Below, piece by piece: positions 1,811 through 58,037 of a DNA stretch of 64,000 nt; position 1 is the first letter of the stretch, and every line of letters starts with the position of its first letter. Position numbers and translations under genes: made by a program. Where the stretch lies: the NCBI GenBank assembly GCA_051047955.1, contig JBPGPT010000001.1, positions 868,001-932,000 on the forward strand, given 5' to 3'. The stretch is from Cystobasidiomycetes sp. EMM_F5 (Eukaryota). Under the pieces are notes generated by a model. That model did not search any database. It was not told where the DNA came from and saw only the letters and a program-made list of their open reading frames with translations.

Positions 1811-2404
1811 TCATTCCCAGATTGGCTTTCTCGGACGTACTTTGCCCAATACGAGGCCAGACGACCCTTCGGCCATGCTGATAAGATCTGCAAACGCATC
1901 GAAAGCGTACAGTTTCTGCAAGCTGCCCTGTTGTCGCGCGGCCTTTGCGTTGAGCATGGAGGGCCTCGACATGAACAAGGCCTCCGGAAGAAGCTTTGCG
2001 GACTGTCGGCGTCTGATGTGACGGGGAGGGTCTACGTGATAGCGCATGTTGGCCAGACTCTGTGTGAGCTTGTGGGGCACTCCGTTGCTCAAGGATGATC
2101 GATGGAGCAGTCTCAGTGTATGTTCAGCTTTTGACCCAACAGCAGATAAACGCCGTCAGCACTGTGCACACTTGAACGACCTGCTGATAGCTGACTGACT
2201 CCGCCTTGCAAATTCTAACCACGCCTCTGGCTTTACTGATCCTGGTTCCTTTGCTGCAGCCATCCAGATGTCAAACTCTGGCCGATACAATGCCCGCAGA
2301 TTCGGCTTGGCTGGCCGGGCATACAGCACGGCTGCAGTCGCATAGCGGAGTACGGCCTTGTACAGCTGGGCGACCTGCCGTGGCGTGGGCTTGACCGCTG
2401 TCAT
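1811..2404 (-). CDS. Small conserved fungal protein with LYR-like N-terminus (possibly mitochondrial)
   Basis: MTAVKPTPRQVAQLYKAVLRYATAAVLYARPAKPNLRALYRPEF..., spliced to exon 1811-2092 ending MAEGSSGLVLGK; LY(K/R)xxLR-type start. Confidence 0.55.
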
Positions 2405-2693
2405 TTGCTGCAAGACAAAGCATAGCAAAAAACGCCACCAATTTTGACAGAGCAAAGAAAGAGCAGTGACAGACCTCGAAAGATTAGGAATTGTCCGCAA
2501 TACATTTGTAATCTTGCATTCTATGTCAGTCATATCTGAGTGATCCTTCGCTATACTACCCCGCTCTTGCGTTCCATTGCTGTCCCTTGCCATAGTCTGT
2601 CAACCCAAGCAAGGCCCGTGCGCGGCTACATAGGCAAAAAAGGCCAGAATACCTCTCATATTCTGAGCTGAATTGTGACTTAGCTTAACCTAG

Positions 2694-3271
2694 GCGGGTA
2701 CTACATTCGTATCCCTATCGAAAAGGGCCATGCCCAGTCGCTCCACCGCCTGGTCTTGGCACTGAATGGGTAGGCGCGTTTCTGTTGCGCAGCTGAATTG
2801 ATGCTGAAAACGTTGCTTTACAGTCGTGACGAAGTCTTGAAGCTCTACAAGGAGAATTGGGATGCTTCCCACCTGTGCCATCAGCCAACGTGCCTGAATC
2901 CTCAGCACATCATCGCGGAGAGTCATGAAGACAACTTGTCTAGACGTGAATGCGCAGGAAAGGTGAGTCAGCGCCCGAATTTGATCTATTAGTTACTGAA
3001 ATCAGCTCGGCAGACCGTATATGTCGGCGAATCTCGCGGACAGGTCTGGGAGATCCAGCCAGAAGCGTGCAAGCACACTCCTGCTTGCATCTACAAGGTC
3101 CAAGCCGTCAATGGAGTGCGCGAGCTGGACAAGGAGTCTATTGAAGACTTCAATCTCCTCCTCAACTGGCAGTGCCGCAAGGAGGTTCATGAGAAGGCTG
3201 TCCTCGATTTTGACAAGGCCAACAAAGCCCGAGAGAATAAACGCCCAGCAAAGAAGGCTAAGACTGAGTGA
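2694..3271 (+). CDS. His-Cys box / His-Me finger endonuclease (zf-His_Me_endon-like), copy 1; 5' end unresolved
   Basis: Removing introns 2770-2823 and 2963-3013 gives GYYIRIPIEKGHAQSLHRLVLALNGRDEVLKLYKENWDASHLCHQPTCLNPQHIIAESHEDNLSRRECAGKTVYVGESRGQVWEIQPEACKHTPACIY...KRPAKKAKTE*. Contains SHLCH-x3-C-x-NP-x-H-x8-N-x2-R-x2-C plus CxHxPxC. Confidence 0.85.
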
Positions 3272-3392
3272 GAAGATGAAAGTGGGTCAGTCGACTGTAG
3301 CTTCCCTATTTCGTATTACTTGCTTACCAGCTACGTAGCTCCAGAAAACCGCAATTGGGGTGAGGTAGTAGGTTTGAAAAGCAAAGTAAGCC

Positions 3393-5240
3393 TCAGATTA
3401 GACGGAGAACACTCTTGTTGTGGTAGAAGTCGGTAGCGAGATCCAGGGTCTGTCCGGACTGTGTCGGAATCAGATGTGGCGGTTTTTTACTGGAAAGCGT
3501 TCCAAGGGCGAAGACTTCGCCATATGCATATTTGCGAGCGAAAGTTAGTCGTTCTACATCACCGAGATGACGCGGCTGCGGATCTTTTCGCTGTAACCAA
3601 TCCACTGACAAAAAGACGTGGCGTGTCCGGTGCCAGGTGTGGGCGAAGATCGCTCTGATCCGGCATAAAGTCGTCTCGCCGATGCCAGTGTTCATGTGAA
3701 CAAATGAGCCTGTGCGGATTGTCACTCTTTGGTGCAGAATATTGTCGTACATCCGCAATTTTTTGTAATTGACGATTCGACCAGAATCTCCACGGAAGTC
3801 GACTGAATCGATACCGTAAAATAGCGAGTAGGCGGCTTTGACGGCTTCGGCGAGAGCTCGTAGACCAGTAGCGGAATTCCCATCTTGCGAAGCCTGACTT
3901 AGATGAACGACAAAGCGGTTTTGCAGGACTTCAGTGCGCCTCAAGGGCTTGTACAGCGCGATGTCGAAGAATCTGGCCAGAACATGAGAGTATGTTTTCG
4001 CACATCTTTCATTGAGTATCACCTACCTCTCCTCAATAGCCTTGACGGGAAATCCGTGCTGCCCCTTAGGGCCTGCATCTCCATGGACGATGTTGTCGTA
4101 ATAGTAGCCTTGAAATAGGAGGGGACACGCTTCTCGCAAGCGATGTAGAGCTGAACTCCAATCCTCTGGATCATCTGGACAGCGATTGACCATCACCAAC
4201 CGCAAAGCTTGACCAAGATTGTCCGTGTGGAGAAAACTGCGTTCGACGTCGCGATTGTTTGTGTGTGGCATAGTAGATTTGGCGATTCTGTGTATCATTT
4301 CATCCATAGCGCAGCTGGCGTTCATAAGATTGCCCAGAGCCCTCGCAGAGGCAGCGAGATGTAGACCAGTATGCATATTCGGAAAAGCATAGTCCAGCTT
4401 GAAAGGCTTGAACAGAGCAGCTGATTGCTCTCGAGACTCTCTAGCAGTCAGGTCCACCAAAGCATACATTTCCTCCGTAAAATCGCGCTGTAGAGCCACT
4501 GCGATATGTTTGCTGACCGCGACGGACGTGGCGATGACCTGACTGAGAGCTTGATCTTTGGTTTTGCCCAAAGCCTTGAGCGCTGTCGATTTCATGCCGT
4601 TATTCTTGACGTTGGGTAACACCGTATGTAGTACTAGCGGGAGGACTGACACCATCGCTACCGCTTCGTGCTGCGTGTAGCTCTGGACGTGACCAATCGA
4701 GCGGACCGATGAATATGTGGCTGGCATTACGAAGCCGCCTTTGGCGCCTTTGTTCATTGCGAGGGATATCGCATCCACTGCCTTGTCTGATAAAATCTTC
4801 TCTACTAGGGGCACCAGAAATCGGTCTTTGACCACGCCAGAAGCTATGGCATGAGACGGGTCTACAGGAAATTGACGATACGGGTCCAGAGGTAGACCAA
4901 CGCGTTCGAAAGGCGAAGGGTCTGCGCCCAATCCCTTTTCAGCAAGAATCCGCTTTCTTTCGGCTTGAGTTCCAGCATTCGATGCGATTGTTCGCACATT
5001 TTGCATAGGTCCCAGCTGACGTTGCTGCTTGAACAATGTCACGGGACTGATGGACATGTCCCCCAATTCAGATCTGTGTACAGAGCACATCCGGCATCCG
5101 TATTCAGCAGTGGGAGCCAGGCAACCTGCCATACTGTTTGCTTCGGGCATATCGAATCGTCCACAGATCACATCGACGTAAACGTTAAGCTCTTGATCGT
5201 CGATGATTGCTTTGAAAGGCCGTCGAGCATATTTGCTCAT
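3393..5240 (-). mobile_element. CACTA(EnSpm)/Plavaka-like DDE transposase with C-terminal BAH-like region; 5' exon(s) unresolved
   Basis: Motifs in the expected order: FDMPEANSMAG...GCRMC (DxP + CxxC), PVDPSHAIASGVVK (DxxH...G..K), FPNMHTGLHL...LGNL...DEMIHRIAK (PxxHxxxH...G...E..H). The apparent stop at 4023-4025 lies in a 54-nt GTAGGT...CAG intron (3973-4026) that joins ORF 4023-5240 to ORF 3393-4022. Confidence 0.8.
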
Positions 5241-5357
5241 GTGGATCAGGCTTTTCTGGAAAGAATCGTAGAAGGAGGCGCCTACCGAAGGTGTCAGCTT
5301 AAGTTTACAGAATACGAGAGTATGTTTTTCGCTGACGAAGTGCGTATTGATCTACAG

Positions 5358-5649
5358 GCTCGCTACCCGTCGGCCACTCCGGGCTGGGGAATCGGCTCTT
5401 GCAATCTACAGTCAATCTTGGTTGCAGCAAGATACGATAAGGAGTGAGTTTGACTCCATCAAATGGAAGGGAAAGCTAACTAGACGGTCTATATACAGTG
5501 ATCCTCTACTTCTAGCATACAAAGCTCAAGGTGTTGGCGGCAAGCTTCAAGCTTCGCATCTCTGCGGGGAACCGTTCTGCCTCAAGCCGATCCACATCAT
5601 TATCGAGTCTTCTTCCAAGAACAACAAACGCAAAGGTTGCTTCAATGGT
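5358..5649 (+). CDS. His-Cys box / His-Me finger endonuclease, copy 2 (core exons; both ends unresolved)
   Basis: Exon 5358-5443, intron 5444-5498 (GTGAGT..GCTAAC..CAG), exon 5499-5649: ARYPSATPGWGIGSCNLQSILVAARYDKDDPLLLAYKAQGVGGKLQASHLCGEPFCLKPIHIIIESSSKNNKRKGCFNG, followed by a GTGAGT donor at 5650. Confidence 0.78.
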
Positions 5650-5897
5650 GTGAGTCTCAAAAAACATACACTACTGATGTTTGTACAACGCTTACATGTC
5701 TGTGCATGCGATAGTTCCGCTGGGTCTTCTGCCATACTTGACATTTCATCTCGACGGTATTGCTGACGAACGCCGCATGCACAGCTTCAAATGGGTTTTT
5801 GGCCCTGCGTTGCCAGGCCCTATCCAAGGTCACTTAAGCTCAACCCTGCACTTTCACAATCTTGCAGATTTATATCGATCGCATATAGGGCTTCGAT

Positions 5898-7502
5898 ATG
5901 GTCACAACCCCTCGCGGTGCTCAACCCTCAGAGCCGGACAGCGAAGCATCTGACACATCTGACTCCGATTCGGCAACGGGTAGCACCAGTCCCGACCAGG
6001 ACGAGGCAGACGAGGACGAAAGCGGCAGTGAGGATAATCAGGCCCATGCGAAACGTGGTAGACTTGGAGAGGACTTGGTTAAGGCGGCGGACAAGCGCGG
6101 CAAGTCCAGCGACAAGAGCAGTGACGGTACGAGCGGACAAGATAGCAGCGATCTCGAGGAGGTACTCAATCGAGTCTTACGGCGACCTTCGAACAAAGCA
6201 AAACCTGAAGCTAGGACTAGCGAGGATAAACGTCGTGGTCCTGCGATAAGCGCAGACAAGACATCCAAAGCTGCAATACACCTCACACACGTCGATAAAA
6301 GTCGCTCAGTAGGGATCAAGCCGTCGAACAGTCATACGAGAACCTCGGGTAGCAAAAGTGCCCGCTCCGATGAAGCTCGTCCTCCTGCACACGCAAGTAG
6401 TGACACAGAACCGGAGCACGAACAGGGAGGCGTTGCGCAAACGAGACGTTCGGTCGGAAAGACAACAACTGCTGCCACATATAAGCCTAAGAACAAGCCT
6501 GAGAAAGGACATGAATCTGACTCCACATTCGCGTTTCCCGACTCGGAGCCCGGTTCTGAAACTTCAAAAGATGCCCGACAGGCTCAGAAACCACCCCAAA
6601 GCCACACAAGGCGATCAGCATCGGACAGAAAGCGAGCGCAGGTCGAGGGAGATCAGTCCCCTAAGGCTACATCCACCAAAAATGGCAGGCATGTTGATAC
6701 CAAAAAGCGATCCGCAAAGACTGTCGATACTGCGAAAACATCCCACAGTAGCTCCGATCTGCGCTCGCAGACGAAAAGGCGACTTTCTGGTGCGCAAGCT
6801 GTTGAACTCGCTGGAAGCACGCCGCGCAGATCGAACGGGCGGAAAGGACAACTTCCGAATGACACGCTCAACGACTCCCCAAGCAAGCGAGATCTCAAAG
6901 GCAAGCGTCGAGCTGTATTTGCAGAAGAAGTTGATATGGTCGACATTCGCGATGATTCCGATGAAACCGGATCCACTGAGAAACAAGAAAAGAAGCGTAA
7001 CAAGCCTTCATTCTCGAATAAGCAGAGGCAACCCATGAAGACGGCAGATGGCCCTCGTATGAAGGGCGAGGAGATTGTGGCAGCCTATCCCGGCGCTGTC
7101 AGTCCGTTGAGTGGAATACCACTCTTCTCAGCGGTTCACGAAGAAAGGCCTGCTTCCTCTAGCGCAGTCTCGCCGAATCGCGTCAGCTTACACCAGCTTG
7201 CACTGACACCTGGATCCGTCAAGGCGGATGAGACTCTACGAGTGAGTCCGGGAGGTCATGCTACCCCGTTGGCCGAAACTGTTCGTCATGATGGTCAGTC
7301 TCTCCGCTGAGCCGGCTTCTGAGATTCAGCTGACGCGGACATGCTAGCAGTATCACCTTCGTTGCATATGCACGCGAATAAGAAGCAACGCGTCATAAAT
7401 GCAGCCTGCGGTTGCTGCGATGTCTGCTGTGACATCATGGATATACTCTGCGGGTGCATGATGATATGTTGTGGTTACATCCAACGCTGGAGTGCAGATT
7501 GA
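5898..7502 (+). CDS. Long S/D/K/R-rich disordered protein (possibly the 3' exons of endonuclease copy 2) with a Cys-rich last exon
   Basis: 470-codon open frame 5898-7310; in-frame TAG acceptor candidate at 5886-5888; intron 7294-7347 (GTCAGT..GCTGAC..TAG) leads to a final exon ending at TGA 7502. Confidence 0.55.
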
Positions 7503-7795
7503 AACGCAAGTCGACTCTCTGCGCTCTCTTTGCCTTCGAGTTGGCCATTTCTATCGTTTGGCGCGCCTCGCGTTCGTTGACTTGGCACTTTGCGACGCTT
7601 GCGAGAAACCCTGTCGCGCCACGCAAGAAGGCTATCACAGTACTGCGACTGTGACTACCGTCGTGCAGCTTTGTTGTCATCCTGCACATACGCACATCCA
7701 GCGCTTGTGCGTAATATGTGTGACGCGATGACTACGAGGTGCGTGGTGGTATGTAGGCTAGCCGGGGACGTGGCAGGGCAGAGACGTGACGGAGA

Positions 7796-10700
7796 CTAGA
7801 CCACTGCCACGCCAGCAACAGCGGTCAACAACACTGTAGATAAAGCCATTAGCATAATATCCAATTCGACATTGTTATTAGTTACGCACTCGGATCCACA
7901 TAATCTGGTAAAGCCTTATCCAGGCGCTCGAGAAATTCCATTCCGACTCGATCTCTTGCTCCTTGTGAGTGCCACATACGATTGACGTCCAGACCGGAGA
8001 AGTCTATCCTCAATCCACCTAGAACTGCATCCGTCTGCCATTGCTCGTCATGCTTCGGTCTCTGGCCTTTCTTGCGTTGTGACTGCCGAAGCGCAGCATC
8101 AAACTGGTCTTGCCCAAGCTGTATCGTCATGGACAGCTGCCATTCCGATATGTTAAAGGAGGAAGCTTCCTGCAGCACCAAACAATATGTCAACGTTCCG
8201 CTTCTCGGCGTTTGCTATAGAGCTTGCCTTTATGTGATGTCGAGTGATCCCACGAGGCGGTTGTTCTGGAAGATCCCAGCGTATGACATCGGCATCGAAT
8301 GCAATAACTGGTGCCGCCGAAAAAAACATGTGAGTAATGCTCCGCGACATGTGTCAAATCCTTACCTGTCCAGATGATTTGCGGATGCTTGATAACGATT
8401 TGCAACTCTCTTGTCTGCTGTACTGCATTTAGACGAGACTCGACCACTTGCACCGTGAAAGAATCTTTGAACGGCGATCTATATGCAGCCGGTAAGGAAT
8501 CCAGAGGTATCTTGTAAGAGTGCAAGAACTGGCTGACGGGATATATCTGTGGATGCAGATGTCAAGCTCGTCACTGATCCTTCTGCTTGGTTACCTACTA
8601 TATCCCAATCTGGTATATCGTCATTTATGTGCGATATTTGCGGCCGATTGGACAGCTCCATGATGTCGGTCGCATCTTCGACCATCTGTGCGAATAGAGT
8701 GATGGTGTTGTCGAGTCCCGCAATATGAAGGTCCAAAGAATTGCTAGTCGTGTTCTCCATGTACAGCACGCAAACACGCTTTGGATGCATGGCGTCGAAT
8801 GACGGCCACTGCGGTGCAGCAAAGATCGCTACCACGACGGCAGTCATAATTGTCAAAAGAAGCACTAAGCGGTAAAGCATACCAGTGCCCCAGCGATGTA
8901 GTAGGGAAGGAAATACTGGAAGTACTAACGGTATCATAGCTGATACTGCCTCGCTGCATGTCAGCTGGGGTCCGTACCCTTATGGTAGACACAACAAACC
9001 TACCCGTGACGGAAATAATGTGATCCGATGGCGCAGTAGCACCCATCCTGCCGGTGAGTGGAACGATAATATCCAGAACCAGCGCAAAGCCCTCACCACC
9101 GATCAGCAGAGGGATTGCTTGACAAAGGAAGTGAGTTAGACCAGAGATGCCACGTCGCGCGGCTGATTCGCGACCTCGGATCAATACAAAATCATTAACA
9201 ATTAACGCCATAAAGATTGAAAGAGCTGGCACAGCAATGATGTAAGCCGACCTATGGAGGTAAACATTCGATAGCCGCTCTTGTCAAAGTTTTTGATCCA
9301 GTACATACATAATTCCAGCTACATGGAGTCCAAGCGTGAACGTAGATGTGTAGAGGAGCATTCCTACGAGAGAAGCATGTTCGAGCAAACCCTCTCCTGT
9401 CTTGAAGTATTTTCGCGATTCGAGGAAATGTGATAACCCAAGTTGTCCAACAGCTATACCTGTAGTGTCAATATGCAGTCAGTATAGTGCACACCAATGA
9501 GATTCTGCCACAATTTTTGAATCACCCAACAAAGTAGGAACGCCATACAGGACTAGAGCATACCACTCTTTCGTAAAATATGTCAATCTCTGGTCTAAGC
9601 ACTGGACCATGGTGAAGGCCGTAACATTTGCTGTGACGATACCAAATATGCTCGTGACGGGTATACCTATTGCGCAGATGGCGTATCCACTTCTCCTGTC
9701 GCAACGGGCCTGACGTGCCGTGTATCCAACGGCACACAACCATAAAAGGGCATAGAAGCATGTTGCAACCTGTTTCTTGACCATTAGAAAAATATTTCCA
9801 CCGAAAGCCGAAAAGAAGACCGTATCACGGGCTGGCTTTATGGCCCTAAGTTCAGCTGATGAGGGCTTGCTGGATAGATACAGCAGGATTGCCAGGACAT
9901 TCTGGCCAAAGTTCTGCAAAGCACCTGGCTCTAGCTGATCGGAAGTATCCAGACGGGTGTGATACTTGTAAGAATCCTTGATCAAAGCTATATCGAGACC
10001 AGTGAGGTTGCCATACTTGTGGAAAGTAGGCCTGGTCAGCGAGCACGAAACATTCACTCCGGAAAACTGATTACCTGGACGAATTGCCGAAAGTCGGTGT
10101 CTGAGCCAATCAAACCGGTCTGCGAAGGAATTGCCTCAGCTTTTGGGAGAGATACAATTATACTGACCACGCACCATGAACACCTCTGTCGCCATAACGG
10201 TGCCCATGGCCCGCGGGACATGCGAGTAGGCTTTGATCATTTCTGTGCTCGTGGCTTGAAAGAGCATCTCTGCTCCACCTGTTCCGCAGGCTTCCAAGTT
10301 GACAACCGCACGGACAGTGTCGCGCCAAAGATGTTTCGTAATGAACAGATGACTGGCGTCTTGTAAGGATTCCTCCGCCCCGTTAAACAGAAAGATGAGA
10401 GAATGCTTGAGCACCAGTCCAGGTGTTTGAGATATTACTCTGATTACTTCGAGCATGACAGCAACTCCTGCTGCATCATCAGCCGCGCCTAACCAAAAAA
10501 ACCAAGTTTCGTCAATTACGTATTGAGGCTGAAAATTGTGGACGCACCGGGCGACGGCAGTGTACTGTCTAGATGTGCATTGATAAGAATCGCATCTTCC
10601 ATACTTTCTTGGCCGCTGTGCAGCCGCACGACGACGTTACTGATACCCAAATACTTCTTCCATACACGCTTGCCCATAAAGTCGAACAGATGATGACCAT

Positions 10701-48970: not shown

Positions 48971-51900
48971 ATGGCAGTCGTTGGGAAGCGGGCTCGTGTC
49001 AAAAGCTGGATTGCCGGGCAAGAAAATGGCAGCACCGGCCAAATTGAGTCATTCAGTGACTTTGCAGCACCAGCGGGACAGCCAGACGACAGCAGCGACG
49101 ACGAAGATGATATTCATGTCAACGGCGTCAAGCAGAATGGAGTGAACGGCGGCGATGAAGATGCCGCAGACACCGTAGCGGTGGATCCGGCGCAAGATTG
49201 GGATGCATTCGAAGATTTCGCTAGCCGGAGCATAGGCTCATCCAGTACAAACAGTCGCGTCCATTTCCTGTCGGATGTGATGGCTAGGTTGCTCAGAAAG
49301 AATGGTGCGGCATGTCTCTGCGATATTTGAAATAATCTAACATGTCCTTGGGCAAACTATAGTCTTCACGCCACAACAGTCTGCAGCGTTACTACGACTT
49401 TTGATTCCTACGTACTCTGTGTATGTGGATGCCAAATCGAGGGAAGCTTCCCTTGCTGCCCTCGATTCGCTGTTTCGGTCCGACTTGGTGCAGTCTGATG
49501 GGAAGCTGTGCGGCAAAGCTCTTGTGTTTCTCGACTCTGAAGTCAAAGGCAAGGTTGACTCAGCTGCTGGATCTACCGTGTTCGGCCTTCTATCTTGGTC
49601 TGTTACTCTGGCTTCATGCTATGCCAGCCATTATGAAGCAAGCGTTTTAACCAACAATGCGCAAATATGGCCAACTCTTGTCCGTATATTAGCGCTTGCC
49701 TACGATGGTCTGCTCTGTGCAAAGGTAAAGCCTTCCATCAAGAAAGCTGGAAGCGTGCTACTTCGTCGACTGGTCCGCAAGGTACGCGGATCGAAACCCC
49801 AAGCTGGATATGAGCTGATACAGTGATTTTACGACAGAACGCCTCCCTTATCCCACCTTTGTTGAGAGATCTCAGTGGACCAGTGTCTACAATCAAGCCC
49901 GAGCCCCGCAAAGCCGCTCTGCTGGGAGTAGTAATATCCGTCGCCCTGAGATTGAAGCACAGGAAAGGTCTTGCGGACGGGCAAGGTTTACAATGGGTTC
50001 AGGACACCAAAGAGGCAATAATGTCGTACTTTAAAGACAACATCCTCGCTTCGCGCACGGCCCTCCCGCCACATACTCTCATCGCGTTTAACGATTTCGT
50101 TGGCGTCTGTGTCAACGAGGAAGACCTATTTCCGAGTAGCGAGTTGGTCAAGACCATGGAAAGAGCGCTTTTGCGCAATCCCGAGTTCTCCCTGACCGGT
50201 AGGGACAGACTGTATCGTGCCAATAGGAGTAGTGCTAATCCTCGGCTTCCAGCCATCGATGTTTTCTTCACGGCGTATGTCTCTCCTCCGATGCCTCTGG
50301 CCGAAATCTCTGCGAGTCAGCGCGCGCCTGGACACGAGCTGATACGGACGAAGATGCTCCCTTCTATCATGTCTTCGGCAAAATCGGCAAATGCTTTAAC
50401 TCGATCGTCAGCTGCCCTGCTGCTGAATACCCTCATGCAGCCATATTTCCGCGGTAATGCAAGCGATGCTGAATTCGTGCTATCTATTGCGCGAGATATT
50501 GGAAACATCCTGAAGACAGCAAAGACGATCTCGCCCGAACACAGGGCCACATTGTATCAGACTCTGTCAACCTTGATCAATGGCAGCGATGCGAACACCT
50601 TGGCATACATGTCTTTGTACGAGGAGGTCGCAGACGTCGTTGCAGTAACAATGGCTAAAGAAACAAACGAGTCGACACTGAAAGTCGCCTTGGAATTATG
50701 CTGCGCGGCTACAAGTCACCTACTCGCCGCGGATCATGATGCACCGAGCACTTTACAAATCTTGTTAGTAAAAGGTATACAAGACACGAAAGCCAATATC
50801 CGAAGACTATACCTCATGGCAGTGGGCAATCTTCTCTGGGGTTTCGGGAGCACGACAAAATCGTCCTTTTCCTCCAGAAAGCTCGCCAAAGACTGCTTGC
50901 CACCCTATAGCTCGATACTGAAGAATGCGATGACAGCCCCGGCAGGCACTGCTGTCGAGGGCTGGATAGCCGTGGCAGCGGTCCTAGGACCATTTTCGAA
51001 GTTGGAACTCTCCGCTGCAGCTGATAATGCGGCGACGGTGAAAACACTGCTGACAGTCACCCCGAAACCCTCATTCCTGCTGAGCGAGCGTAACTACAAG
51101 AGAATCAGCAATGTAGATGATGAGGTATGGTTATTACGCGCCTTTCAAGCAGTTTTCGACTTTTCCGAGCCTATTCAACGCTGCACAGAGGATTCGTCTC
51201 GAGGTGTTGCAGTGGCGCAGCCGATTCTACATATTGCGGTCAACAGCGCGTCGCATGCAAATCGTGCGCGAGCGTTGACGATTATAACTCACCTGTGTGG
51301 CGAAGAAAGCAACAACTCTCATCGAATAATTCTTGATGCGCTTTTGCGGCAGCTTGCGCAAGATGCTACAGCCGTACAAGCGGAATTTGAGAATGAGAAA
51401 GTCACCGACCGTCGGGCACAGAGTCGGAAGGTCATTGTTGCGATGGCCAGAGCTGGTCGATACAAACCCCAAATTTTAGGCGATTTGCTGGTCGTATGTC
51501 ATCACGAACAGATCGGTAAGTGCTCCGTATGTTATTTTGTATAATCGCGGAACGGCTTGATGACCAGTAAACACGCCACCAGTTGCGGTGAAGCAGCAGA
51601 TATGGGTCGAATTGGTCATATCATGCGGATACGATCTCGGAGCGTATGTCAAAGAGCACTGCAGCCGACTTGTCGCCGAAGTCAACACGTATGCGGGCGT
51701 TGGCGATGTCCAGCTCGCACATGCTGCATATGCAGCCATGGCAACCTTGGCATTTGTGTCTCCACTATTGTATATGCCATTGTTGGTTTCCGAAGCGACC
51801 GCACTGCTGGACGTGGGACGGCTACAATTTATTGGTCCGACAGAAATCGGCATACTTTCCACTCCTGATGGGCAAACCTTCGTTGACGGTATGTCAGAAT

Positions 51901-54900
51901 ACTCTGGCTGTGTGAAATGCGGAAGCAGTCTTACGTTTGTCTATCTTAGTACTGAGCATTAATGCGAAAGCCTCCTCGTCCAGTAGCAAAAACAAGAATG
52001 CTGCACTCGATAAGTGGGATGCAGAGACTCGGAAGGCCATCGAGGCCAAAAGAGGCGCGGGGCTTGCAGCTAAACTTTCGAAGAGCGATCAAAAGCTATT
52101 TGATGATCAAATCAGAGTGGAGGGAGAGACGAGAAGGCGTGTCATCGCAGCACTAGCTGAAACAAGACAAGGTTTCCGTACTATCCAGAGCATTCTGACC
52201 TTGCAGGACGACATTGTGTACCCCTTTGTCCCGCAACTTCTCCATGCCATGCTTCCCGCCGTTTCAATCCCTTTTGCGTCATTCTACGCCCAGGATGCTT
52301 TCAGAGTGTTCATGGTGTGTGACCGGCTGTGGAGAAATCGGATTTTACGATACTGAATTAGCATCTCCTCGGCAGAAATTGTTCGAGCGATGCGACCCGC
52401 GTCTTTCCGAAGTTCGTGCCAGTCTAAGCCTATGCACGTTGAAGGTACACGAATCCCCGGCGGTCCCAGATGACTTCTACACAGAATCTCTCGCCGCGTT
52501 AGTAACCACTATCCTTTATCGACTACGTTTCCAGAGCGAACAATACCCCTTCGCACCGAGTACATTTGCATTGGCATTTCCGCTGATGCGGACTTGTCTC
52601 ATGAGAGGCGGTCTAGGTCTTGCAGTCGATGACGCGGACGGGTTGATGGAGCAGCTGTCTTTATGCCTGGATGTCTTAGCATTTCATGTGCGCAATTGTG
52701 AGTGTCGGCTGCTGTCTGTCGTTGTCAACCAGCTGACACTTAGCCCAGTCGCGGATACAGCATACCCGCGTCTTATAGTTATAAATACTTTGACATACTC
52801 TCTCCTCAAATACCCTTCGCTTGCGCGTGTCGCATCTCAGGCGCTGATTGATCTAGGTGCTGCGATCAGCAAAAATTCGACAAGCGATGAGCATGCAGCA
52901 TTACTGCATAGCCTCCTCGTTGACGAGAGTACCGTCCGACATGCCTGTTTACAGGCTTTGGTAGTGAGTGGTCGACCGTGGGAAAGGTAAAAGATGCTAA
53001 GTGCGCTTGGCAGCCTCTGGATCTCACCGACTTAGAGTACTCTCAGGAGCTCTGGGTTGCCATTCATGACACGGACGAGCGTAATCATCAGATTGCCATG
53101 GATATCTGGGAGGAAAATGGGCTAGATCTTAGCCGGAATGTCGCGGCAAATCTTCTGCCGTTATTAGGTTGGGCGGACCGTGCTTGCCGCATGCTTGTAA
53201 GCTGACGAAGCATCTCCGTATCAGGACATCAAAACTCTTTCGTCCGCGGTGCAACAGCTCGGGCCATAGCAGATGCTGCCGCTCAACAACCACAAAGTAT
53301 CGGGACAACTCTGAGTCTACTCGATGCGGCGTACATTTCATCGGCTAAGGAGGTGCTGCCCGAATACGATCAATTCGGAATGCTTGTACACGCTTCGCTC
53401 GATCAAGAAGACCCTTGGAAAACACGTGTTGCTCAGGCTGAGGCCTTACGGAACATGGCGCACCTATGGGGTCCAGCCGAAGTCGTAACCCTTTTTGAAA
53501 TGTTGATTGATGGCGGCGCCCTCGGTGACAGAGTCGAAGCTGTCCGCACGAGAATGCTAGAGGTAATTGGTCGATCATCTCACAGACTCAAGAGTCGATT
53601 TCTGATTCATATAATCTTAGGTGGGCACCCACGCAATTGATGCTCAAGGTAAACCAAATCTACAACCTTTGATGGACCGCTTCCAGACGTATCTGGCCAA
53701 AACGCACCCGCCAAATGACGTGGGCGATCGCATCACCGAAACGGTCATTGTTCTCTTTGGACGACTAGCACAACACTTAGATTCGGGCGATGAACGTGTC
53801 CAGGGTGTATTGGATCGTCTCCTAGAAGCCCTGAAGACCCCGTCGGAGATGGTACAGATCGCGGTAGCGGAATGCCTTCCAGCGTTGATGAAAGCCAATC
53901 CGAACCGCAGCGACAAGGTGATAGAGCAGCTTCTTCGCCAGACGACGGCGTCTGTCTCGTATGCTGAACGTCGAGGGGCTGCATATGGCTTGGCCGGGGC
54001 TGTAAAGGGTCGCGGTATCAGTGCCGTGAAAGATCTGGAAATAATCCAACGTTTAGAGGATGCGACCGAAGAGAAGAAGAATGCAAATGCTCGACAAGGT
54101 GCTATATTCGCGTTCGAGACCCTGTCAAGCAATCTCGGACGTCTCTTCGAGCCATACATTGTCAAAATACTTCCGCTACTGCTAGCTTGCTTCGGCGACA
54201 GTTCGGCAGATGTCAGGGAAGCAACGTCAGATGCAGCGAAGGTTATCATGAGCCGATTATCGGGCCATGCTGTCAAGCTCATCCTGCCGATCCTGCTAAA
54301 CAGCTTAAACGATCGACGTGAGCGTACTCCAGAAAAGCTGGGCGGCCAGCACTGATTTTGCCTGCTTGTAGAATGGAGAACGAAGAAGGGAGCTATCGAG
54401 CTTATGGGCAGTATGGCCTATCTGGCACCAAGGCAACTCTCGCACTTCTTGCCGACGCTGCTGCCTCTGCTAACGGAAACGCTTACCGATACCCACGCGC
54501 AAGTCCGAGCAGCAGCCAACGCAAGTCTGAAGCGATTTGGAGAAGTAAGCGATCACTGCAGAATTGAATTGTTTCACCTAACATCGCTTACTGACTCGTG
54601 GATCCAGGTCATTGACAATCCTGAAATAAAAGCACTGCAGTCCACATTACTTGGGGCCCTTGTCGATCCTACGAAGAGGACAGGGAAAGCTCTCGACTCG
54701 CTCCTGAAAACGTCGTTCGTACATTATATTGACGCGTCTTCTTTGGCTTTGGTATGTCTCGCAACGGAGTCAATGAACAATACCAGAAATTGTTCCTGAT
54801 GCTCATCTTATGTCCCCAGATAATTCCAATAATCGAGCGAGCTCTGCGAGAGCGTGCGACGGAACTAAAGCGCAAGGGAGCGCAGATCGTCGGCAACATG

Positions 54901-57899
54901 GCTTCTCTCACCGAGTCGAAAGATTTGATCTACTATCTCCCACAACTTATCCCACGCGTCCGCGAAGTTCTGGTCGATCCAGTTCCTGAAGCTCGCGCTA
55001 CGGCTGCAAAATCCCTCGGTGTATTGATTGAGCGGCTTGGAGAAGATGCTTTCCCTACGATGGTTGAAGACTTGATGAGAGTGCTAAAATCAGATATGTC
55101 TGGAGTAGACCAACAGGGCGCTGCGCAAGGCTTGGCCGAAGTGCTCTCTGGACTCGGAGTCGACCGAATGGAATCAATGTTGCCCGACATAATATCGTTT
55201 ACCGCATCCGCCAGATCATACGTAAGAGAGGGCTTCATCTCTCTTCTCGTATATCTGCCCTCGGTTTTCGGCGAACGCTTTTCACCATACTTGAATCGCA
55301 TTATTCAGCCAATCCTGAGTGGGTTGGCAGATGACTCAGAATACGTCCGTGAAGGTTAGTGGATGTGTTGCAGTGATGAATATTCAGCTGACTCCCGTCT
55401 TAGCGTCCATGCGGGCGGGCCGAATGATCGTGGCCAACCACTCTCACAAAGCTATCGACCTTCTCTTGCCAGAACTTGAAACGGGACTCTTCGATCCGCG
55501 CTGGCGCATCAGACTTTCGTCCATACAGCTGGTCGGCGAACTTCTCTTCCGTATCTCTGGCATTAGTGGAAAGTCTGACATGGAAGAAGAGGTCAACGAA
55601 GATGAAGATTCGTATACTAATAACGCGGAGGCTGCCAAGAAGATGCTGGAAGTACTCGGTAAAGAACGCCGTGATCGTGTACTGGCAGCAATCTACATAA
55701 TGCGGCAGGACTTCGCAGGCCAGGTCCGCATGTTCTCGCTGACAGTGTGGAAGACCCTGGTGTCGAATACGCCACGAACTGTGCGAGATATGCTGGCGGC
55801 ACTGAGTAAGCCTCTCTTGCTTCACAGGTCATACGAGAAAGGGCTAACCCACTGATATGCCCAGTGCAAATAATTATTCGTCTCTTGTCGGCTGATGGCG
55901 AGGAACAAAGAGAGACCGCAGCCAGAACGCTTGGCGAGTCAGTTGCATGCCCTTCGCGAACCATTCAACCGCTGTGCTGAATCGTTTCGTCATAGATTAT
56001 GCCGCAAGCAAGGTGACAGAATTTTGGGCGATATTATCCCGATCTTGCAGCAAGCTTCTTCTGGATCAGCAGTCACACGGCAAGGCTGTTGCCTGGCATT
56101 TGCCGAGATGCTTGCCACAACCAGCGCAACTCAGCTGGAGGGATAGTACGTGACTCTGTGACGAACGTAGTCCGCGCATGACTGACCTCCTGCATTACTC
56201 AGCGAGGACGCTATCATCAATTCGGTTCGCGCAGCTCTCGTCGACGAGAATGCATCTGTCCGACAGGCCGCAGCGCAAGCATTCGATGCTTTACAGACGC
56301 AATTAGGAGCGCAGGCGATCGATCAAACAATACCTACCCTCTTGGTAGCCCTGACTCAGGGCGGAGGCGCGAGTGGCGCTGCCTTGTCAGCTTTGCGAGA
56401 ACTGTATGTTGCAGCGGCTCTCAACCAGGTCTGGTGTCTAACCTTTTCTTACCGGCAGAATGGCGGTACGCTCGCAAGCTATCTTCCCAATCCTTATCCC
56501 TGCACTTATAGCTCAGCCTATTTCGGCGTTCAATGCCAAGTCTTTGGCATCACTGGTCGTCGTTGCTGGCGACGCCCTGAATAGGCGATTGTCTTTGATC
56601 CTGGACGCTCTTCAACAGAGCCGCGACCAAGAGACAGACGAGAATACAAGAAGCGAGCTCGACAACGCCATCCGTGCCGTCTTGTCCTCTGTCCGTGACG
56701 TGGACGGCCTACACCAGCTCATGCTACACTTGCTCGCTCTGGCCAAGGATCCTCGCGCCGGCAAGCGGATCGGTGGATGCCGGTTGTTTGCAACATTCTG
56801 CGAAGTCTCCGAAGAGGATGCTTCGGCGTACGATATCGACTGGATTAGGCAGCTCCTAGCACTTGCAGAAGACGACGTGCCGGAAGTTAACGAGGCAGCT
56901 GGTGATGCTATGGCAGCTCTAGCGAAGACTTTCACAAAAGAGCAGATGGAGAACTTGTCGGTACCCTTAAGGCGAACGATCGACAACCTTGGTCCGCCGG
57001 GTCGTGAAATCGCAGGCTTCTGCCGTCCTGGCGGTCTCAAACCTATTCTTATTATTCTCATTCAGGGCTTGCTGGCTGGCACGAATGAGCAGCGCGAACA
57101 GTCGGCATTCGGCCTCGGCGATGTCGTGGAACGTACGGCCATCGACGCTTTGAAACCGTACGTGACGCAAATCACCGGGCCACTGATTCGAATAATTGCC
57201 GAAAGATACCCGCCTCCCGTGAAAGCTGCAATCCTCTCCACCCTAACGATTCTGCTGGTGCGAGTACCTCAATTCGTCCGCCCGTTCTTTCCCCAACTTC
57301 AGCGCACCTTTGTCAAGAATCTCGCCGAGGTTGCCAGTTCAGTAGTCCGAAGCAAAGCCGCCACTGGCCTCGGAGCGCTCATGTTGCATCAACCTCGTAT
57401 CGACCCACTCATTACAGAGCTGGTAAATGGTACAAGCCATGACGAGTCTGACATCAGGGATGCCATGTCAGCAGCTTTGGCGAATGTCGTACAAGCCGGA
57501 GGGCCCAACATGAGTGTGTCATCGCGCGAAGCGGTCGCAGATGTCGTCAGAAGAGCCTTGGAGGAACCTGGCAAGGACAATTACAATAATAGCATAGCGC
57601 GGGTCTTGGCATACTTGCTAATGCACGAGATCCCGCATGCGAAGCCTCTCGTGTTATCAGTCTACGAGGGTAGTTCGACCAACATCAGCAGTACCACCCT
57701 GACTATCTGTCTGGAGATCGCGCCAAGTCAGCTCTATAAACTAAGCCCAGTGACGCCAACAGCTGTGGTCAATCGAATTCTGAAGAGTGTGGTGAATGAA
57801 CAGCCGGGTATCGCAAGGCCGGCAAGGGAAGCTCGTGAGTTGCTCAAGAATAGTATGCCGTGGTCGGACGACGAGCAGGTGCAGTCTAGGTTAGCTTGA
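48971..57899 (+). CDS. GCN1: Translational activator Gcn1 (HEAT repeats)
   Basis: [88 protein letters not shown]; ~9 kb with many introns. Confidence 0.96.
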
Positions 57900-58037
57900 T
57901 ATTCGATGTACTCGAAATGCAATACGCTGGCAAGTCTTGCTAACATGACCAAAGCGCCGTATGCTTGGAGTTTCTGTTGAGATGTCACAGTCTGCTCCGA
58001 TACATTATGCTAGCCTTGCCGTTGTCATTTTTGCTGT

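Follow-up and report, generated by a model that had tools for sequence, protein, structure and literature searches.

Does a short run of genes in a basidiomycete genome, in which a transposase-like gene lies between two genes for homing-type nucleases, represent a mobile element that carries nucleases as cargo? The genes in question lie in a window of 64 kb (64,000 nt; by "the window" we mean this whole stretch) of Cystobasidiomycetes sp. EMM_F5, contig JBPGPT010000001.1, positions 868,001-932,000 of the forward strand, and the coordinates below count from its first nucleotide. Stop-to-stop open reading frames (ORFs) together with Pfam matches give the order Endo-1 (+), transposase-like gene (-), Endo-2 (+) and a 470-aa disordered ORF (+), which is the order, and these are the strands, given by a first-pass annotation of this DNA. 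We consider it probable that this block is an immobile remnant of selfish DNA between host genes and not a working transposon; it has the look of something dead because all three of its selfish-type genes appear incomplete. Its core, at about 2640-5340, would be made up of the 3' parts of two convergent genes, Endo-1 and a Plavaka-related, RAG1-like (CMCT) transposase gene with a BAH-like domain, each of which would end abruptly on its outer, 5' side, either at an intron or within one. Endo-2 would be an anciently diverged paralogue of Endo-1 that begins right at the breakpoint of the transposase, with its start codon present and its 3' end decayed.

The transposase-like gene and its family

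The transposase-like gene occupies 3393-5282 on the minus strand and is truncated at its 5' end. Two minus-strand ORFs, 4026-5351 and 3396-4022, share a frame with a single TAG between them, and this TAG falls within a canonical 54-nt intron (4026-3973, GTAGGT..CAG), the removal of which joins the coding segments 5240-4027 and 3972-3393 into a 597-aa product identical to the NCBI-annotated protein P0152; NCBI KAL7010296.1 from the same organism falls into one cluster with the transposase ORF at an identity of at least 90%. The truncation emerges from comparison with P0154, a full-length relative of 1137 aa (EMMF5_002543) that is annotated in Cystobasidiomycetes sp. EMM_F5 as well. When P0154 was searched against the 64 kb with tblastn, its residues 521-1137 aligned to 5282-3396 (45.7% identity, E 1.5e-169), while its residues 1-520 found no match anywhere in the window, all other hits having E of at least 0.64. 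The homology begins at 5282, upstream of the annotated start at 5240 and directly after a splice acceptor (..cggtag followed by GC, at 5283/5282), and the adjoining 5283-5340 (-) is an orphan 3' piece of an intron with a CTGAC branch-like site. Beyond this acceptor there is no upstream transposase exon: no frame stays open on the minus strand, and the other strand is occupied by Endo-2. The idea of a nested gene, with Endo-2 lying antisense inside an intron of the transposase gene, was rejected because the intron of the relative at this place appears to measure only about 55 nt (inferred from ORF fragments of P0158 and P0002) and because the upstream exon is missing.

Alignment of the full-length members of the family places its first acidic block (LSHYYDKFG in P0154) in the part that the window copy has lost; this block, with the first Asp, is present in P0154, P0007 and P0015, and the window copy starts only downstream of it. 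The encoded protein has no complete DDE triad. What it would keep are the second Asp, the CxxC and HxxxH zinc motifs and the Glu, with about 520 N-terminal residues gone, and as the region of the first catalytic Asp is missing the transposase presumably cannot form a DDE active site on its own.

The kind of transposase can be read from a predicted structure. Residues 1-336 of P0152, encoded at 4233-5240 (-), form a part resembling the RAG1 core and carry D30, C49-x2-C52, H290-x3-H294 and E314. An AlphaFold (AF2) model built from 82 family sequences reached a predicted local distance difference test score (pLDDT) of 92 and a predicted template modelling score (pTM) of 0.89, and the top Foldseek hits to it in the PDB are all RAG1 chains, the best of them 6dbo_A at E 1.3e-4. 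VIA-align superposes model residues 1..339 on residues 679..990 of mouse RAG1 (Z 14.6, root-mean-square deviation 3.7, 281 aligned), with Z of 13-14.6 across mouse RAG1 679..~1000 and of 13.8 for the amphioxus RAG-like transposase BbRAGL (6b40); the predicted model has the RAG1/Transib-like catalytic core fold. We take the catalytic residues of mouse RAG1 to be D600, D708 and E962 and its zinc ligands to be C727, C730, H937 and H942; with residue 1 set on RAG1 679, D30, C49 and C52 of the window protein would then presumably coincide with D708, C727 and C730. P287, H290, H294 and E314 are conserved in at least 90% of the 82 sequences. The CMCT motif set (second Asp, C-x2-C, H-x3-H and Glu), as this clade is defined in the parts of PMC12730594 drawn on here, is present in P0152, and according to the same parts of that paper (Kojima 2025) the stretch from the second Asp to the Glu contains C(2)C and H(3)H in Plavaka, EnSpm (CACTA) and Transib-RAG1 too. 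On the predicted model, the window protein begins just before the second catalytic Asp and is a CMCT-type transposase without the first third of its active site.

The C-terminal part, residues 407-590 of P0152 (3417-3968, -), is a beta domain that by VIA-align resembles BAH domains, with Z 9.1 to the BAH domain of ORC1 (4dov_A, 126 aligned), Z 9.1 to ZMET2 (7ubu_A) and Z 8.3 to BAH1 of DNMT1 (7lmm_B); one source names the relative P0010 "BAH domain-containing protein". In the model, such a domain suggests chromatin-directed targeting in this family of RAG1-like transposases. Our literature search found no paper with both "BAH domain" and "Plavaka", and a sequence search of the PDB with the family profile gave two chance hits only (E of at least 0.5).

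An exhaustive HMMER search returned 292 relatives at E<=1e-3. Besides P0154, full-length ones with 1100-1600 aa come from Microbotryum, Mrakia, Ascobolus and Drechslerella, and further relatives occur in Atractiella, in a Cyphobasidiales genome and in Ascosphaera; in the long relatives the region that matches the window copy begins at about residue 300-920, mostly at 550-700. The nearest relative among 5.8 billion protein clusters has 51% identity. The family's relation to Plavaka is looser than its relation to CMCT transposases in general. The window family is like the CMCT clade in that its predicted fold superposes on the RAG1 core (Z ~14) and in its weak but consistent matches to the Plavaka profile (positions 190-320). 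It is unlike Plavaka in its BAH-like C-terminal domain and in that every member tested stays below the gathering score of the Pfam Plavaka model (PF18759, 26.3 bits): the window ORF scores 17.8 bits, P0152 16.4 and P0154 17.5, and of 58 relatives scanned nine score 16-24 bits and none reaches the cut-off. The match of the window copy covers the last third of the profile only (positions 213-320 of 325). The first-pass name of CACTA/Plavaka-like transposase is thus right as to the CMCT kind, by motifs and predicted fold, and is not borne out by the Pfam Plavaka score.

One further relative deserves mention. P0009 (198 aa, from an ENA contig of 25,784 bp of another organism) has a weak reverse-transcriptase-like stretch (RVT_1, 17 bits) that runs into transposase sequence, and the junction lies nearly at the point where the window copy starts; P0009 may be another truncated or chimeric copy.

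The two His-Cys box nucleases

Endo-1 (2684-3271, +) is a gene for an I-PpoI-type His-Cys box nuclease (PF05551). As read from its splice sites it has three exons, at 2684 (or 2694)-2769, 2824-2962 and 3014-3271, and two canonical introns, 2770-2823 (54 nt) and 2963-3013 (51 nt), each with one in-frame TAG. The gathering cut-off of PF05551 is 27 bits; the ORF at 2774-2989 scores 43.2 bits (E 5.6e-11) and the read-through from 2684 scores 45.4 bits over profile positions 30-98. With phmmer, Endo-1 finds only I-PpoI in the PDB (E 3e-4), over 35 gapless residues (I-PpoI 94-128), and it keeps the equivalents of Ser97, His98, Cys100, Cys105, His110, Glu114, Asn119 and Cys125, in the numbering of catalytic and zinc residues given in the passages of PMC9587614 on I-PpoI. 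Exon C carries CKHTPAC, and the pattern C..(21)..C-K-H-T-P-A-C fits the second zinc site (Cys125, Cys132, His134 and Cys138). Because every catalytic and zinc residue that can be aligned to I-PpoI is kept, Endo-1 would, by analogy, adopt the beta-beta-alpha-metal nuclease fold and cleave DNA at a long, specific site. Its basic tail, KRPAKKAK, resembles a nuclear localisation signal by eye.

The beginning of Endo-1 was not found. The gene has no in-frame ATG and its exon opens at an acceptor (2683/2693); in 2405-2693, the 290 bp that separate it from the start of the neighbouring gene, the sole plus-strand ATG, at 2523, is without a usable donor. Homologues of 107-342 aa were sought in the protein collection, and none reached E<=10 among 38 candidates that share words with Endo-1. 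Of the Atlas clusters, the one nearest to the core of Endo-1 is a PF05551 cluster of mostly eukaryotic origin, with Ascomycota as the most frequent of its known phyla, and a published classification of His-Me nucleases describes the I-PpoI group as confined to eukaryotes, with 62 fungal members.

Endo-2 (5322-5741, +) is a His-Cys box nuclease gene or pseudogene, again of PF05551. It has an ATG at 5322, an exon to 5443, an intron at 5444-5498, an exon at 5499-5649 and a GTGAGT donor at 5650. The ORF at 5272-5763 scores 39.2 bits and the exon 5500-5649 alone 38.8 bits, and with these values and those for Endo-1 the earlier calling of both genes as His-Cys box nucleases holds. The best downstream exon, 5715-5738, reads ..FRWVFCHT and is followed by TGA, and C-x-H-x3-C is absent from every frame of 5650-6000, which leaves the second zinc site of Endo-2 incomplete, with its first Cys only.

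The two nucleases share the core spacing SHLC-x4-C-x4-H-x3-E-x4-N (SHLC..C..P.H..E....N.....C), and the equivalents of Cys100, Cys105 and His110 are present in both. At the place of Cys41, Endo-2 appears to have a Cys and Endo-1 a His, as judged from an alignment by eye of the N-terminal exons only, which is uncertain. Both internal introns of Endo-2 match those of Endo-1 in codon position: an intron of 54/55 nt lies 29 codons after the acceptor-like site, and a GTGAGT donor comes right after the Cys125-x3 codon. The protein cores are identical at 25 of 67 positions (37%; E 8e-10 by BLASTP, 2.9e-8 by tblastn), and the DNAs align over 50 nt of the core only, with 27 of 100 shuffles scoring as well. 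Given this core identity and the lack of significant DNA likeness, we regard Endo-1 and Endo-2 as old paralogues, and a recent local duplication was rejected.

With I-PpoI and the other His-Cys box nucleases of ribosomal DNA (rDNA) they have in common the PF05551 match and, in Endo-1, the Ser-His, Cys, Cys, His, Glu, Asn and Cys positions. They differ from I-PpoI in being free-standing nuclear genes with spliceosomal introns and no rDNA gene in view around the block, and the sequence likeness is limited to the catalytic core. A group I intron in rDNA is not the setting here: in 2000-8200, Rfam gave neither a group I intron nor a match to another family at E<=1. A conceptual parallel, and only that, exists with TnpB/Fanzor as accessory nucleases that travel with a transposase; those are RNA-guided RuvC nucleases, whereas the window nucleases are protein-guided and belong to the beta-beta-alpha-metal type, with no sequence relation to TnpB/Fanzor and no guide RNA feature found.

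A motif of about 25 nt, GCGAAAA(A)CATACTCTCRTRTTCTG, appears twice in the block, each time in the 3' part of a transposase intron, at 3978-4001 (-) and 5308-5332 (-), or more narrowly at 3978-3994 and 5308-5324; none of 300 shuffles scores as high as the pair, and the 64 kb give no hit besides these two. A gapped and weaker copy lies at 2634-2668 (+), a short way upstream of Endo-1's first exon, with a score equalled by 1 shuffle in 300, and the ATG of Endo-2 is formed by the complement of the motif.

Surroundings, ends and copies

On its left the block is flanked by a NAD-epimerase ORF, identified with Pfam, and then by a small minus-strand ORF with its Met at 2404; the latter matches no Pfam family, and neither do the flanking single exons. 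On its right lies a multi-exon Peptidase_M28 gene on the minus strand, the 3' end of which is placed only approximately. Beyond the block, 56 of 87 ORFs of at least 130 aa were run against Pfam, the other 31, set aside by eye, being the epimerase ORF, all that lie in 2159-7084 and any that a longer ORF overlaps. Host-type families were matched by 16 of these 56 (Peptidase_M28, GGT, PRA1, SRR1, mitochondrial carrier, GCN1, Josephin and glycerol-3-phosphate oxidase, among others) and transposon families by none, in agreement with the first-pass picture of a selfish-type block among host genes. A large multi-exon GCN1 gene (Gcn1_N, HEAT_GCN1_fung and HEAT_EF3_N) extends over 49800-57900 (+), and ordinary host genes fill the remaining window.

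A six-frame search of the 64 kb with a regular expression for the His-Cys box matched at the two nuclease sites only. A 33-aa tblastn match to the Endo-1 core at 9595-9497 (-), E 0.001, was set aside as probably due to chance, since it is without every catalytic and zinc residue and sits where the M28 peptidase gene encodes its membrane part. The block is not set apart by base composition or by GC content at third codon positions (GC3), its genes having GC3 of 0.50-0.65 against 0.49-0.60 in host genes, that is, within or close to the host range.

The last member of the block, the 470-aa ORF at 5898-7310 (+), is of low complexity, rich in Ser, Lys and Asp, and matches no Pfam family; its DNA is A-rich, with an AT skew of up to 0.39. 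Its exact sequence occurs in NCBI and Logan sources, and its best Atlas score, 0.81, is a lead only. A splice from the Endo-2 exon end at 5649 to 5889 (AG at 5887-5888) would be frame-compatible with this ORF; chance alone would give that in one case out of three, and no branch site speaks for the splice.

Features of a mobile unit were sought around the block. No terminal inverted repeats (TIRs) were found: the longest inverted pair in 2000-8200 measures 19 nt at 79%, and the best inverted match between left and right is 13 nt. Neither the occurrences of CATCA/TGATG nor those of CACTA/TAGTG pair at plausible ends, and the published termini of Plavaka (TGT..ACA, or CATCA..TGATG with target-site duplications of 2-3 bp) were not found as paired ends at the locus. 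No long direct repeats were found at the block, the 64-kb window holds no second copy of it and the protein collection no close copy. In an exact look-up in that collection, the 63-aa Endo-1 ORF, exon 1 of Endo-2 and the flanking ORFs were all absent, and no viral-contig match was returned. The earlier proposal of a discrete mobile unit is not supported: neither TIRs nor a second copy in the window were found, the transposase has lost its 520 N-terminal residues, Endo-1 has no in-frame start codon and Endo-2 has an incomplete second zinc site.

Origin of the block

The closest known analogue is KolobokP of animals, in which, according to the parts of Kojima & Bao 2022 (PMC9587614) that describe it, a gene for a DDE transposase is followed downstream, on the opposite strand, by a gene for an I-PpoI-like nuclease. 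The locus shares with KolobokP the pairing of a transposase gene with a small, convergent gene for a His-Cys box nuclease that is protein-guided and of homing type; the architecture has a named precedent, and the first-pass remark that no named element with it was known needs correction. The differences are considerable. KolobokP belongs to the Kolobok superfamily and to animals, whereas the locus belongs to the CMCT/RAG1-like clade and to a fungus. The same parts of that paper give KolobokP long terminal direct repeats with TIRs of their own and many copies, whereas no repeats or ends were found here, and the locus is further unlike KolobokP in its truncated transposase and in its two diverged nuclease genes. 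The nucleases might have been former cargo of the transposon family, as in KolobokP, or might have arrived separately in a nest of transposons.

It is possible, and deserves serious weight even though we hold it to be less likely than the reading given at the outset, that the block is the relic of a genuine nuclease-carrying transposon, namely a Plavaka-related CMCT element of Pucciniomycotina with a convergent I-PpoI-type nuclease, of which one truncated copy would be left together with the nuclease of a second, nested copy. The convergent stops of Endo-1 (3271) and of the transposase gene (3393) are separated by 122 bp, in the layout of KolobokP as far as the consulted parts of PMC9587614 describe it, and each of the two genes is severed on its outer, 5' side, as would be expected of one internal fragment (2640-5340) of a larger unit. 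The only two PF05551 genes in the 64 kb both touch the transposase remnant, and that none of the three genes is intact fits selfish genes better than host genes. Against this stands the failure to meet the linkage of nuclease and transposase anywhere else, albeit in a small and distant sample. A metagenome scan with A3 gave five distant transposase loci, with relatives at 26-30% identity (one with A1 gave 268 pattern matches and no relatives); none of the five contains a His-Cys box by regular expression or tblastn, and a Pfam scan of 21 ORFs of the two closest contigs shows no nuclease. No His-Cys motif is fused to any of 149 transposase relatives, and PF05551 is found in none of 58 scanned. 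The literature search found no paper linking PF05551, the His-Cys box or homing endonucleases with Plavaka or EnSpm, and the main-text passages on nucleases of PMC12730594 and PMC5751038 report no nuclease cargo for Plavaka or EnSpm; the Plavaka consensus sequences and termini of PMC12730594 and the data files on KolobokP may have a bearing on how the family is classified. Moreover, with Endo-1 and Endo-2 as old paralogues (37% identity), a second, lost element must be assumed.

Several points speak against our preferred reading of the block as an immobile remnant. The transposase-like gene keeps 597 codons without a stop, its canonical intron and all residues that are invariant in its five closest relatives, and by a rough estimate an old neutral pseudogene should have gained stops, so that the truncation would be recent or else the protein under constraint. 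Exons that seem to be missing from Endo-1 or from the transposase could escape both the reading of splice sites by eye and tblastn. The absence of nuclease linkage elsewhere is weak negative evidence, as it rests on five short contigs and relatives of 26-30% identity.

The first of these points could be taken to mean that the shortened transposase, together with one or both nucleases, now serves the host, for instance in chromatin or DNA-break functions. Such a domestication would account for the intact ORF with its conserved intron and motif residues, for the annotation of the gene as a protein in NCBI and for a codon composition that matches host genes; fragments from the Cyphobasidiales genome are also slightly closer to the window copy (44-45% identity) than P0154 is to it (37-42%). 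We nevertheless regard domestication as improbable, with no orthologue above 51% identity in the protein collection, Endo-1 without a start codon, Endo-2 truncated and the catalytic triad incomplete. Far less credible again is an intact and active new transposon with homing-type nucleases as cargo: its gene content is all that speaks for it, and it is already contradicted by the truncation, which has removed the region of the first catalytic Asp, as well as by the lack of TIRs, of a second copy in the window and of a close copy in the protein collection.

As the window copy cannot move, the immediate biological consequence of a remnant of this kind is small. What the locus does show is that a lineage of basidiomycete yeasts has I-PpoI-like genes that stand free and contain spliceosomal introns, and that a little-described family of RAG1-like transposases with a BAH-like domain extends across Pucciniomycotina and some Ascomycota. 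This leads us to offer, as a tentative and somewhat doubtful proposal, that Pucciniomycotina may harbour a family of RAG1-like (CMCT, Plavaka-related) transposons with a BAH-like domain, a putative chromatin reader, and a convergent I-PpoI-type nuclease, of which this locus would be a decayed copy. If the nucleases were indeed cargo, this would be a second, independent union of a homing endonuclease with a DDE transposon after KolobokP, with no earlier example from fungi or from the clade in which RAG1 originated. Cut-and-paste transposons would then have taken up homing-type nucleases on more than one occasion, and fungi would offer a tractable system in which the role of such a nuclease, whether in re-cutting of the donor site, in multimerisation or in drive, could be tested.

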